From a virus (taxonomy: Duplodnaviria; Caudoviricetes): DNA of 48,800 nt. Shown piece by piece: positions 86 through 48,251 of this stretch. Numbering within the stretch: position 1 is the stretch's first letter; each line of letters begins with the position of its first letter. The notes under the pieces are model-generated. The model was not told where the DNA came from and made no database searches. It saw only the letters and a program-made list of their open reading frames with translations. The stretch spans positions 1 through 48,800 of IMG/VR virus record IMGVR_UViG_3300005573_000129; one strand, given 5' to 3'. The translations under genes and the position numbers were made by a program.

Positions 86-576
86 GCAGAATTCCACCGA
101 TATATGGAGAAGATTATGAGTCTCAATGGGGAAAGATAGATTATACTGGGAAAATAGTTCTCGATATTGGAGGATCAACTGGGGATACTGCTGATTTTTT
201 CCTTCGTAAGGGAGCATTATTGGTAATCTCTGTTGACAATAATGCAGAGTATTCTAACATATGCAGAGAGAACTCTAAAAAATTTGGTCTTCCTATCCTT
301 TCTTTAAATCTTGATATGGGATGTGAAAAACGATGGGATAAACTGATTTCGATGTTTAGACCAGATGTTGTTAAATCTGATTGTGAAGGATGCGAACATA
401 ATCTTGCAAAGATTTCAAACGAATCTTTTAGGATTCCGAAAGAGTATATTATAGAAGTCCATTCAAAGAACATAGAAGATGATCTTACAAAGAGGTTTGA
501 AGCACATGGATATAAGTTAATAGATGTAAATGCTTGGGCAGACCCTGTTAAGATAATTTATTGGAAGAGGGATTGA
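82..576 (+). CDS. FkbM-like SAM-dependent methyltransferase
   Basis: VLDIGGSTGD SAM-binding motif I; DVVKSDCEGCE matches FkbM 'K.D.EG.E'; IIEVH. Confidence 0.75.
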   Translation: MSRIPPIYGEDYESQWGKIDYTGKIVLDIGGSTGDTADFFLRKGALLVISVDNNAEYSNICRENSKKFGLPILSLNLDMGCEKRWDKLISMFRPDVVKSDCEGCEHNLAKISNESFRIPKEYIIEVHSKNIEDDLTKRFEAHGYKLIDVNAWADPVKIIYWKRD

Positions 577-583
577 ACTTAAT

Positions 584-1045
584 ATGGGATATAGTTCTGT
601 TGGGATTATAGGGACAAGGCATGGATTAACACCACAACAACAGAGCACTTTGCATAGTTTTTTTGAAAAGAATATTTTTTCTTTAAAAGAAGCACATCAT
701 GGTGATGAGATAGGGACTGATTTAGTATTTCACAAAATTGCAAAGTCCTTTGGTCTTAAAATAATTATACATCCACCTGATAGTCCACTCAAAAGAGCAT
801 TTCTGAAAGGAAATGAAATATTAGAAGAAAAAAACCCAGATGAGAGGAACAAAGAGATTATAGACTTGGTGGATTTAGTTATAATAGCACCATCTGATAT
901 ATCAATGAAAAAGCCAAATGCATTCAACTTAAATACTGCTATATTGTATGCCAAGAAGATTAAAAAACCTATAATGATGCTGTATCCAGATGGGAAGTTT
1001 ACTATATTGACTATTAAAGAAATGAATTCTGGATATTCTATTTGA
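584..1045 (+). CDS. SLOG-superfamily (YspA/DprA-like) nucleotide-binding protein
   Basis: VGIIGTR, HHGDEIGTD, IIHP, RNKEIIDLVDLVI and T....A.K..KP pattern typical of SLOG folds. Confidence 0.65.
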   Translation: MGYSSVGIIGTRHGLTPQQQSTLHSFFEKNIFSLKEAHHGDEIGTDLVFHKIAKSFGLKIIIHPPDSPLKRAFLKGNEILEEKNPDERNKEIIDLVDLVIIAPSDISMKKPNAFNLNTAILYAKKIKKPIMMLYPDGKFTILTIKEMNSGYSI

Positions 1046-1049
1046 AAAG

Positions 1050-1598
1050 GTGGTATCTTTGAAAAATATTGGATTCATTGGATGTATGGGTTCTGGAAAG
1101 ACTACTATGGCTAATTTGGTATCGGAACATTTTGGGCATAAGAGAGTTTCTTTTGCAAGTGGTGTTAGGGAAGTAAAAGATATGCTCTTCAATGATTATC
1201 CAAATGAACGAGAGATACTTCAGAAAATAGGTATGGCTATGAGAAATATAAGCAATGATGTATGGATTAAATATCTATTCAGTAAATTGTCTGAAGATAA
1301 AAACTATGTGATAGATGATGTAAGGTTTATCAATGAAGTGAATTATTTGCTTGATAATGGTTGGTCGTTGTTTAAGTTAGAAGTGCCTACATCCGAAAGA
1401 ATTAGAAGACTTCAGAAAATTGGAAAATTCAAAGGTGATTTTGAAAATATATGGCACCCATCTGAACTTGAAGCTTTTAGCATATCAAAGGATGATTACG
1501 GAGACAAGATAGTATTCGTTGATAACACAAGACCTTTAGATATTGTATGGAAGGAAATTAAATCTGAAATATTAAATAGGAATAATTTAAAACCATAA
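1050..1598 (+). CDS. deoxynucleoside-monophosphate kinase-like P-loop kinase
   Basis: Walker A GCMGSGKTT, SFA, VIDDVRF.NE and H.SE motifs of phage dNMP kinases. Confidence 0.75.
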   Translation: MVSLKNIGFIGCMGSGKTTMANLVSEHFGHKRVSFASGVREVKDMLFNDYPNEREILQKIGMAMRNISNDVWIKYLFSKLSEDKNYVIDDVRFINEVNYLLDNGWSLFKLEVPTSERIRRLQKIGKFKGDFENIWHPSELEAFSISKDDYGDKIVFVDNTRPLDIVWKEIKSEILNRNNLKP

Positions 1599-46218: not shown

Positions 46219-46927
46219 GAAAACTAAAGCAGATACAAAAAGCAAAGACAAATTGCTTGAAGTCCTGATAGATACCAGAGAGCCAGATAGATATGCAAGC
46301 CTATTGAAGCAAAATGGCATTCCAATAAAAGTTGAAACACTTGAAACCGGTGATTTCGTCATTGGGAATGTAATTATAGAAAGAAAAACAGTCCCTGATC
46401 TTTTTAATTCAATAAGGGATAGGAGAATATGGAATCAATTGTTCAGGATGCATAAGCTTACAGAAGACGGGTTCAGGGCTGTCTTGCTTGTAGAAGGGGA
46501 AGTGCCTACTTGGGATTATTATACCAACTCATCGATATCCCAGTCAAAATACAACTGGTATCTAAATATTATAAAGTCAATAGAAGCAAAATGCTATGTT
46601 TCATATGGAGTATTCTTTAAGTGGATAAGAAGCGATACTGCATTCGTAGATTTCATAAAGTCTTTGTTCACTTCTATGAGAACATATGGGAAATCCAAAA
46701 AGCCAATTCTTGAAAAGAAAGAGTTTAGATGCATTACAGAGATAAAATCGGACATGCTTTGTGCAATCCCATTGATAGGCAGATCAACAGCAGATCATCT
46801 TTCAAGCCAATATACCATTGAAAAACTTTGTGAGTTTTCTATTGAACAATTATCAGGCATTACATTAAATAAGAGAAAACTTGGAGAATTAAGAGCAAGG
46901 AATATATTTGAAGCACTCCATAAATGA
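46208..46927 (+). CDS. ERCC4/XPF-family structure-specific nuclease
   Basis: IDTRE, GDFVI, IERKT..DL..SI..R...Q; C-terminal HhH IPLIG...A. Confidence 0.85.
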   Translation: MGNEKTKADTKSKDKLLEVLIDTREPDRYASLLKQNGIPIKVETLETGDFVIGNVIIERKTVPDLFNSIRDRRIWNQLFRMHKLTEDGFRAVLLVEGEVPTWDYYTNSSISQSKYNWYLNIIKSIEAKCYVSYGVFFKWIRSDTAFVDFIKSLFTSMRTYGKSKKPILEKKEFRCITEIKSDMLCAIPLIGRSTADHLSSQYTIEKLCEFSIEQLSGITLNKRKLGELRARNIFEALHK

Positions 46928-47257
46928 TATAAAATGTTGATACAGCATAGCCAAATGCAAATGAATAGACAGGCGGGAACTCCACCTCGCCTCATTACCT
47001 ACCAGCTTTATGTTGATTCATTATGCTGGTAGTATGTCTATGATGTTGGTAAATATGCTGTATCGATACATTTATTAGACACATATTATATTATATTATA
47101 CAGGGATTAAAACATGCTACTTGAAAATTGTGGTAGTTGGATTAATGGCGATTATTTGGAATGTGCAAGTAATAGAATTCTGCAAAGTCCTTGTTTTATT
47201 CACAACTAATAAAGCAGTTGTGGTAAGATCATCTTTCAAGATGGATGTCGATAATAT

Positions 47258-48244
47258 ATGGGAACTCTGTATGAAGAATTGAAAAAAGCATCTCCTATCA
47301 GCATTAGTTTCCATGATGATGCTGATGGAGTCTATAGTGCAAGTTTGCTATTTTTTGTTGAAGGTATAGAAGTTAGGAAGGTAAAGACAGTGCCTTCAGA
47401 TGAAAGGATTATGGTAGAAAGTCCAAAGGTCTTTGGTGATTACAAGTATAGTGTTGCAGTTGATCTTGGAAGCCCATTAAACAAGAACTGGAATGGCATA
47501 GCAATAGACCATCATCCAAATCATCCAACGGATAGAAAATACAAACTCTTTTGGGATACTGTCCCTACTGGCTTGATTATTTGGAACCATTTGAAGGATT
47601 ATATACCAAAGTCTGAATGGTGGAGAGTTGCTGGCTCTCTTATGGGAGATGCTTCTATAGATTATCTTCCTGCTGAAATATGGGATGAATATCCTGAATT
47701 GTTTGATGAAAAGGGAATTTTGTATCGTGATAGGTATTGGAAGACAAAGATGTCAAGATCACCTTTGTATGTATTCTTGTCCTCTGGAATAAATGCAAGA
47801 TGCAGGCTTGGTGATCCTCTTGGTGCTTTGCAAATGTGCTTGAAGTATAAATCTCCTGTTGATGCAGTTCTTGATCCAGAAGCTATTAGTGCCAAGAAAC
47901 TTCTTGAAGTAGAAGAGACAAATATCCTCAAGCAACAGTTGCCAATTGAAGTCATAGGCAATAAGTTTGCTGTTACTAAAATAAGATCATCAAGACCAGA
48001 ATATTCAATGTCTGGCAAGATTGCTTCAACACTTGCATCACAGTATCCATTTTTGACTATTATAGTCTTGAATGAGTCTAATGGGGAAGTGTCTATCAGA
48101 GGAGTTCTTGCAAAATATGTAGCAGATAAGCTAAATGCAAATGGATTTCAAGCTGGTGGTCATCCAAGTGCTTCTGGATGTACAGTTCCTATTGAAAAGT
48201 TTGATGACTTTATGAAATTCATAAGAAGCCTTGGAGTAAGATGA
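47258..48244 (+). CDS. DHH/DHHA1 phosphoesterase (RecJ/NrnA-like)
   Basis: HDDADG, VDLG, IDHH, GD, SIRG, GGHPSASG. Confidence 0.85.
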   Translation: MGTLYEELKKASPISISFHDDADGVYSASLLFFVEGIEVRKVKTVPSDERIMVESPKVFGDYKYSVAVDLGSPLNKNWNGIAIDHHPNHPTDRKYKLFWDTVPTGLIIWNHLKDYIPKSEWWRVAGSLMGDASIDYLPAEIWDEYPELFDEKGILYRDRYWKTKMSRSPLYVFLSSGINARCRLGDPLGALQMCLKYKSPVDAVLDPEAISAKKLLEVEETNILKQQLPIEVIGNKFAVTKIRSSRPEYSMSGKIASTLASQYPFLTIIVLNESNGEVSIRGVLAKYVADKLNANGFQAGGHPSASGCTVPIEKFDDFMKFIRSLGVR

Positions 48245-48251
48245 TCTTACT
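48235..48251. promoter_or_regulatory. 17-bp palindrome AGTAAGATGATCTTACT over the DHH gene stop codon
   Basis: Read directly; member of the dispersed motif family. Confidence 0.6.

Follow-up and report, generated by a model that had tools for sequence, protein, structure and literature searches.

What reads a short palindrome that recurs along the genome of a tailed virus, and what it does there, is the question raised by the IMG/VR record IMGVR_UViG_3300005573_000129 (Duplodnaviria; Caudoviricetes). The window is the whole of this record (G000), a stretch of 48,800 nucleotides with a GC content of 33.4%, representing part of a linear virus genome, with an estimated completeness of 45%. The virus is present in the runs X1-X3, with a ~95% strain in X3, and a contig of X1 reaches 2051 bases beyond the left end of the window. 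Its gene content includes capsid, tail tube and terminase genes, a ligase-domain protein, ERCC4 and DHH proteins and two DNA methylases, and the palindrome AAGATSATCTT is found both between and within genes. The host is likely archaeal and perhaps belongs to the Thermoproteota, since the two capsid homologues that carry names come from Thermoprotei and Ignisphaera metagenome-assembled genomes (MAGs). What is new here is the view across the family, in which each virus has a private palindrome beside one conserved ParB gene.

Copy number, symmetry and coding context of the palindrome

The initial annotation, made from the sequence without database searches, counted 16 copies of AAGATSATCTT, and a recount returned every one of them at exactly the same coordinate. 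Its rough expectation of about 0.1 copies proved sound, with 100 dinucleotide shuffles averaging 0.12 copies and never exceeding 1, and under a third-order Markov model the word is the top 11-mer of the window (16 versus 0.15). The extension of 12 of the 16 copies to AAGATSATCTTAC on one side was likewise recovered, as were four longer palindromes at 7265 (19 bp), 15535 (15 bp), 24934 (19 bp) and 48238 (17 bp). The invariant core is the shorter AGATSATCT, which occurs in 24 copies and makes the unit wider than the 11-mer set; eight of the ten one-mismatch copies deviate solely at the outer A/T. The spacer is always 1 bp, and 24 of the 26 occurrences of AGAT-N-ATCT have G (13) or C (11) at the centre. 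The symmetrised profile loses strength with distance from the centre, as (G/T)(T/G)A-AGAT-S-ATCT-T(A/C)(C/T), with the consensus GTAAGAT-S-ATCTTAC, past which the flanks are dissimilar between sites, so the sites do not derive from a repeat element. They are scattered over the whole record at one per ~2 kb, without clustering at one centromere locus, and intergenic sequence, which makes up 8.6% of the window, holds six of the 24 (P 0.014). A variant contig lists 6 changes in 47150-47313, none within the site at 47225, which are too few to count.

The annotation had also held that the motif is independent of reading frame and that protein sequence does not explain it. The former stands only in part: all three frames are used, but 14 of the 17 intragenic cores read D-D-L or D-H-L. 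These tripeptides are themselves enriched in the window proteins (13 versus 4.5 and 5 versus 1.0, respectively), 14 of the 18 being encoded by the motif. The latter was supported by codon-preserving shuffles in two modes, 300 each, which gave 3.1 and 3.6 cores in genes (maxima 9 and 10) versus 17 observed, and 0.9 and 1.1 copies of the 11-mer versus 9 observed. Nor are the peptides kept in homologues, as none of the aligned segments, obtained for 11 sites, has DDL or DHL at the corresponding place. The simplest reading is that the DNA site is under selection and settles in the frame best tolerated by the protein.

A general bias of the host genome, which the annotation had proposed as a check, was not seen in 401 genomes of the Thermoproteota, the phylum of the MAG G007 described below, although the real host may fall outside this sample. 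AAGATSATCTT occurs 0-14 times per genome, at most ~7 per Mb, versus 328 per Mb in the window, and in the five richest genomes the copies are scattered.

Private palindromes and a shared ParB gene in related viruses

The relatives examined were the whole records G001-G006 and G408, together with three viral contigs (C31, C34 and C44) of the MAG G007, which were taken as one virus from their complementary genes. Seven of them carry the replication module (G001-G005, G007 and G408). AGATSATCT is present in the relatives at background counts only, without enrichment, and each of the seven module-bearing relatives has its own palindrome, five of them strong, one moderate and one weak. A gapped-palindrome scan returned ATCGATTTA-N5-TAAATCGAT in G003 (23 copies, corrected log10 p -63), TATTCAACGTTGAATA in G002 (38-40 copies, -57), TATATCY-N3-RGATATA in G004 (24 copies, -33), (AAG)TTAATATTAA(CTT) in G001 (23 copies, -12), TGTAACA-N3-TGTTACA in G408 (7 copies, -7.5) and, weakly, TAGTGGGA-N5-TCCCACTA in G005 (6 strict or 11 loose copies, -2.3). 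The viral contigs of G007 feature the 12-bp palindrome TCYGAYRTCRGA (-5.9 by 10-mer counts), and five of the six full copies in this 2.1-Mb MAG are located on those three contigs. The motifs of G001-G005 stand above every codon shuffle, and the cross-count matrix is near-diagonal, the diagonal arising by construction and the off-diagonal not.

The controls comprised ANMV-1, four distant terminase loci, 12 of 15 chance loci (three under 7 kb were skipped) and two host contigs. Their best scores were -4.6 and -2.9, both for AT-rich words, and ANMV-1 showed no such palindrome (-1.4). Fifteen loci found with the window 15-mer held 1-3 cores each and were attributed to chance, and a search of viral contigs for the paired-site pattern gave 0 matches. 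Tandem repeats of short units (AATACCTTG and related words) are dense in the distant terminase loci L009 and L010. Direct terminal repeats are present in G002 and G005, and G002 additionally has tandem paralogous genes of ~410-440 and 170-245 amino acids near its record end (63069-68878).

A protein of 249-308 amino acids with a ParB_N match, mostly accompanied by a helix-turn-helix (HTH) match, is encoded in all seven module-bearing relatives, and its gene is always located between an SSB-like gene and PolB. The SSB-like label was given by judgement, with no Pfam match, and the ribbon-helix-helix (RHH) look of the ParB C-terminus was judged by eye. The profile of this clade found its best solved matches in Noc (2e-25), Spo0J/ParB and KorB (7.5e-12), and these folds were also the ones matched by an AlphaFold model of the homologue P0063 (pLDDT 87). 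Among the 401 Thermoproteota genomes, the clade is high-scoring in a single one, on a viral contig of G007 (1.9e-82), with four others near 1e-27. GxxR and N-x-R are invariant in all 14 rows of the ParB alignment. G408 was fetched after the hypothesis linking palindrome and ParB_N had been formed, and both features are present in it. No ParA (PF13614) was found in the five relatives tested, two of them with terminal repeats, and no tyrosine integrase in the five tested for it.

The last genes of the window are a DHH gene and a small membrane-protein gene (47258..48498, plus strand). A TA repeat is situated at ~48,700, near the right end. In G001 and in contig C34 of G007, the corresponding two genes precede RadA, the SSB-like gene, ParB and PolB, and the window virus is therefore predicted to encode its ParB just beyond the right end, a few kb past it. 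P0063 is sister to the ParB of G001 (100/99), and the DHH proteins of the window and G001 are likewise sisters (89/91). Three relatives have a further ParB_N gene that differs from the first (G004:41567-42340, G005:42323-43069 and G007:C34:14580-15422) and could be the binder in these viruses. GenBank phages gave no match to the window capsid and none to P0063, while the phage matches to the ligase-domain protein were ANMV-1 and one Rhizobium phage. ParB, ligase, ERCC4 and RadA are not mentioned in the available part of an account of Bathyarchaeia viruses (PMC10848311).

The sites are intergenic to very different extents, with shares of 7/7 in G408, 19/23 in G003, 21/38 in G002, 11/24 in G004, 7/23 in G001 and 3/29 in G007, and their spacing is more even than random in G002 (P 0.0008) and G003 (P < 0.0002). 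Conservation of position was assessed for 26 core gene groups, scoring a site within -60..+300 bp of the gene start, in seven records, with G408 not included. The start of the small terminase gene has a site in five of the seven, and the DHH gene and a tail gene in four each, despite the differing site sequences (P 0.0055 by a circular-shift null). In G408, three sites are located ahead of the terminase operon and one ahead of the capsid gene.

Sites and neighbouring genes along the window

From the left end, an 11-mer site read as EDDLT (476..486) is located in a methyltransferase-like open reading frame (ORF) at 82-576, and a core 9-mer (3487..3495) in ORF 3290-3634. ORF 3627-7664 contains a site read as KDHLT (6328..6338) and a 19-bp palindrome with perfect arms in the VRSSY frame (7261..7279). 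A core 9-mer (8408..8416) and a site (8869..8879) fall in ORF 7995-12506, which is situated within the head module and encodes a 1503-amino-acid protein with an ATP-dependent ligase and a weak LigD phosphoesterase domain. This ligase-domain protein is kept in relatives, being split in some, with the ligase part absent at that place in G001, and has a homologue in ANMV-1. ORF 12484-12966 bears another core 9-mer (12789..12797), and a 15-bp palindrome (15533..15547) lies over the stop codon of the major capsid gene, an overlap that had been annotated correctly, as had that with the DHH stop described below.

The 19-bp palindrome at 24930..24948 precedes the putative small terminase gene (ORF 25064-25612) by ~125-140 bp, at the orthologous position occupied in five of the seven records; this ORF itself contains a core 9-mer (25384..25392), and the large terminase gene a site in the KIILL frame (26174..26184). 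No portal gene was recognised in the window by Pfam or PHROGs. Two intergenic sites form a pair 93 bp apart (28611..28621 and 28704..28714), and the 82 bp between them showed no unusual folding (z -0.92). Adjoining this pair and the HTH gene are four AT-rich direct repeats with 60-bp spacing (28852-29063), a possible origin or promoter array. Further intergenic sites are found ~30 bp upstream of ORF 31593 (31557..31567) and between the RHH gene, 37 bp behind, and ORF 35167, 162 bp ahead (35000..35010). Together with the pair and the site at 47225, these had been annotated as lying upstream of promoters, of which the intergenic location of all five stands. Core 9-mers occur in ORF 32754-33677 (33269..33277) and ORF 35403-36431 (36347..36355).

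To the right, a P-loop ATPase (40007-40726) is shared with six relatives, and its YFxxR motif is invariant; its comparison with solved structures gave only Walker-A-level matches (best E 0.01), and it presumably resembles FtsK/HerA-A32-type ATPases. Sites are present in the winged HTH (wHTH) ORF 42073-42330 (42200..42210), near the start of ORF 44414-45130 (44442..44452) and in the epimerase ORF 45226-46218 (45665..45675). The QKL..Y / GPYS pattern of ORF 44414-45130, which has no Pfam match, is taken here to recall Panacea/SocA antitoxin domains. Core 9-mers are located in the Dam-family methylase ORF 43420-43914 (43473..43481) and the ERCC4 nuclease ORF 46181-46927 (46792..46800). The last intergenic site (47225..47235) is 28 bp upstream of the DHH gene, at the orthologous position with a site in four of the seven records, and a 17-bp palindrome (48235..48251) spans the DHH stop and the next ATG. 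Searches of the window for tRNA genes and Rfam families gave no match.

Several words are strongly avoided in the window, including GGCC (0 versus 45), CTNAG, RGATCY, CCWGG, CTAG and GCGC, and several restriction systems of the host may be behind this. A second over-represented word, the non-palindromic YAAAGTCC, has 32 copies on both strands from 741 to 47190, 30 of them in genes versus 3.8-4.0 in codon shuffles and 32 in the whole window versus 19.9 under a fifth-order model. Its excess is milder in G005 (23 versus 13.7) and absent in G007 and G408, and may partly be a halo of the avoidance of GGNCC and CTNAG.

Candidate binder, rival explanations and known systems

The palindrome had been interpreted as the binding site of a dimeric protein, comparable to parS or operator sites. 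This general idea fits the dyad symmetry, the codon-shuffle enrichment, the lack of enrichment in the sampled Thermoproteota genomes and the family pattern, while the binders named for it are unsupported. The 55-amino-acid RHH_1 protein (34796..34963, plus strand, above the cut-off), the HTH protein (29103..29846, minus strand) and the weak wHTH protein (42073..42330, plus strand) are genuine DNA-binding folds but have no orthologue among the 3353 ORFs of the window and ten related records. The suggested sensitivity to GATC methylation cannot be a family rule, because the motifs of G001, G002 and G408 contain no GATC. The proposed analogy to the stoperators of Cluster A mycobacteriophages extends to the many sites per genome, some inside genes, and fails on symmetry, since stoperators are asymmetric and oriented with transcription according to the available text of PMC4351075, in contrast to the palindrome of the window; no integrase was found here.

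With a chance slightly better than even, the palindrome is a KorB/OB-like dispersed loading site of the virus's own ParA-less ParB clamp, which is predicted to be encoded off the fragment. The HTH domains of a ParB dimer would read the two arms of the palindrome, and nucleotide binding would close the clamp, which would then slide off the site and coat neighbouring DNA. Sites ahead of operons (terminase, the DHH/replication block, capsid) would serve as operators setting transcription, whereas intragenic sites would be extra loading points through which the genome may be coated during replication. Protein and site would drift together, such that each virus marks its own genome only.

A number of observations weigh against this clamp-loading interpretation. 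The ParB_N gene is absent from the 45%-complete window, and P0063 could not be tied to the window genome. The co-occurrence of ParB and palindrome carries little weight, since ParB belongs to the core genes and is passed on along with the others, and the ParBs of G004 and G005 share 43-45% identity although their sites are dissimilar. In the ParB clade nearest the window, GQLR replaces GERR and the EN motif is lacking, which makes the use of cytidine triphosphate (CTP) uncertain. The build of the sites varies among relatives, with spacers of 0, 1, 3 and 5 bp and lengths of 12-23 bp, which is much for one orthologous HTH. Positional conservation weakens to P 0.06 (0.017 for the top two) by a stricter permutation among core genes, and spacing in the window is random (coefficient of variation 0.98), unlike that in G002 and G003. 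The gapped-palindrome scan missed the G007 motif, and the G005 signal alone is unconvincing because its -2.3 falls inside the control range. Nothing below -2.5 was obtained for G006 (25 kb) and ten capsid-relative loci (8-21 kb), a test of low power on short loci, because 21-kb pieces of G001 and G005 fail too.

If the sites served as operators for a small transcription factor of the virus (RHH, HTH or unrecognised), different from one virus to the next, ParB would be a bystander core gene. A true RHH_1 gene at 34796-34963 with a site 37 bp after it, a 53-amino-acid RHH-like ORF (judged by eye) ahead of the SSB-ParB genes in G002 and the mostly intergenic sites of G003 and G408 are consistent with this alternative, and unrelated binders would fit the varied spacers. 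It is nevertheless unlikely, as the three candidate proteins of the window lack orthologues in relatives, RHH_1 is above the cut-off in only one of five records, and a static operator does not explain why 18 of 24 sites in the window and 26 of 29 in G007 are intragenic. Known nick motifs are one-strand and asymmetric, and a nick or packaging mark is less likely for a symmetric site. A role in packaging, concatemer processing or nick repair, with the small terminase or the head-module ligase-domain protein as reader, is improbable for this reason among others: packaging needs one or few sites rather than 20-40 evenly spread ones, and G002 and G005 have direct terminal repeats, with few sites in G005. 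Its appeal comes from the conservation of both genes, the site ahead of the small terminase in five of seven records and the three clustered before the terminase operon of G408.

About as improbable is a host origin, in which a chromatin, partition or transcription factor of the host binds the site or a HIP1-like bias of host methylation or repair makes it. GATC is present in both halves of the site, two DNA methylases are encoded by the virus, many restriction-type words are avoided in its DNA, and the real host may fall outside the sampled genomes; against these points stand the lack of enrichment in the 401 genomes, the location of the G007 motif on viral contigs and the 14-18 specified bases of the relatives' motifs, too long for methylase targets and in several cases without GATC. 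An artefact of codon or amino-acid usage, or a halo of restriction avoidance, is largely refuted and very improbable. The DDL/DHL frame of 14 of the 17 intragenic cores and the absence of RGATCY point that way, but the codon shuffles, the six intergenic copies, the symmetric extended flanks and the near-invariant 16-23-bp palindromes of the relatives do not.

Among known systems, HIP1 of cyanobacteria is a GATC-containing palindrome distributed genome-wide in the host, in genes and between them, whereas the present motif is unenriched in the sampled Thermoproteota genomes and differs per virus. The sites of Noc are dispersed and palindromic; those of chromosomal ParB, parS, are grouped near the origin and function together with ParA. 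The system described here is not ParABS, because neither ParA, sought in five relatives, nor a clustered centromere was found. Noc is an orphan ParB (bioRxiv 10.1101/2025.10.10.680097) and gives the best sequence and fold match of the viral ParB clade, although both Noc and ParB-parS are chromosomal and bacterial. Phages and archaea often carry orphan ParBs, mostly without a known site or role, as stated in the available part of the same preprint.

The KorB protein of plasmid RK2 (IncP) is a CTP-dependent clamp that loads at OB, slides and acts as a repressor of promoters at distances of up to 1.5 kb (PMC11790492, available part), and OB, TTTAGC(G/C)GCTAAA, occurs at 12 sites on ~60 kb (PMC13768133, available part). 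OB shares with the window site its arm-S-arm palindrome build with a central G/C (PMC13768133), and KorB is likewise a ParB-family protein with an HTH, acting at about a dozen sites near and far from promoters, whose positions are kept in a relative. The differences lie in the carrier, a virus here and a plasmid there, in the lack of any ParA/IncC found here, in the KorA partner, not identified here, and in the 20-40 sites, many of them intragenic, with another site sequence in each relative; that the candidate binds the site and uses CTP is presumed here. By analogy, the viral system may work like KorB-OB, its membership being unproven.

A 17-bp dyad without an assigned function is present 34 times in Cluster O mycobacteriophages, and their orphan ParB-like gp90 is not linked to the dyad by the authors in the available text (PMC4351075). 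The likeness includes more than 30 dyad sites across the genome of a tailed virus, both intergenic and intragenic, an orphan ParB-like gene with neither integrase nor parAB (PMC4351075), and a 7-3-7 build that is also that of the G004 and G408 motifs. A tailed virus with more than 20 dyad sites and no integrase or parAB is also what is found here, a likeness that is descriptive only, as the sequences are unrelated. Cluster O differs in being a group of bacterial phages with one sequence in five close genomes, compared with a private sequence per virus here. A literature search covering few subscription papers and no supplements returned no account of such a system in archaeal viruses.

Tentatively, and with a chance a little short of even, a whole group of large archaeal tailed viruses may mark "self" by a private palindrome, recognised by an orphan ParB sliding clamp that co-evolves with it. 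Such ParA-free, plasmid-style genome-wide loading would coat and regulate viral DNA in the archaeal cell, and the same pairing may explain the Cluster O dyads. The private palindrome is also an aid in attributing metagenomic fragments to a single virus, as for the contigs C31, C34 and C44 of G007. Up to eight related viruses provide natural protein-site pairs with different palindromes, and cross-binding among them could test the link and map how specificity is rewired. If true, KorB-like control would be extended to archaeal viruses, and a testable candidate would be offered for the unexplained Cluster O repeats.

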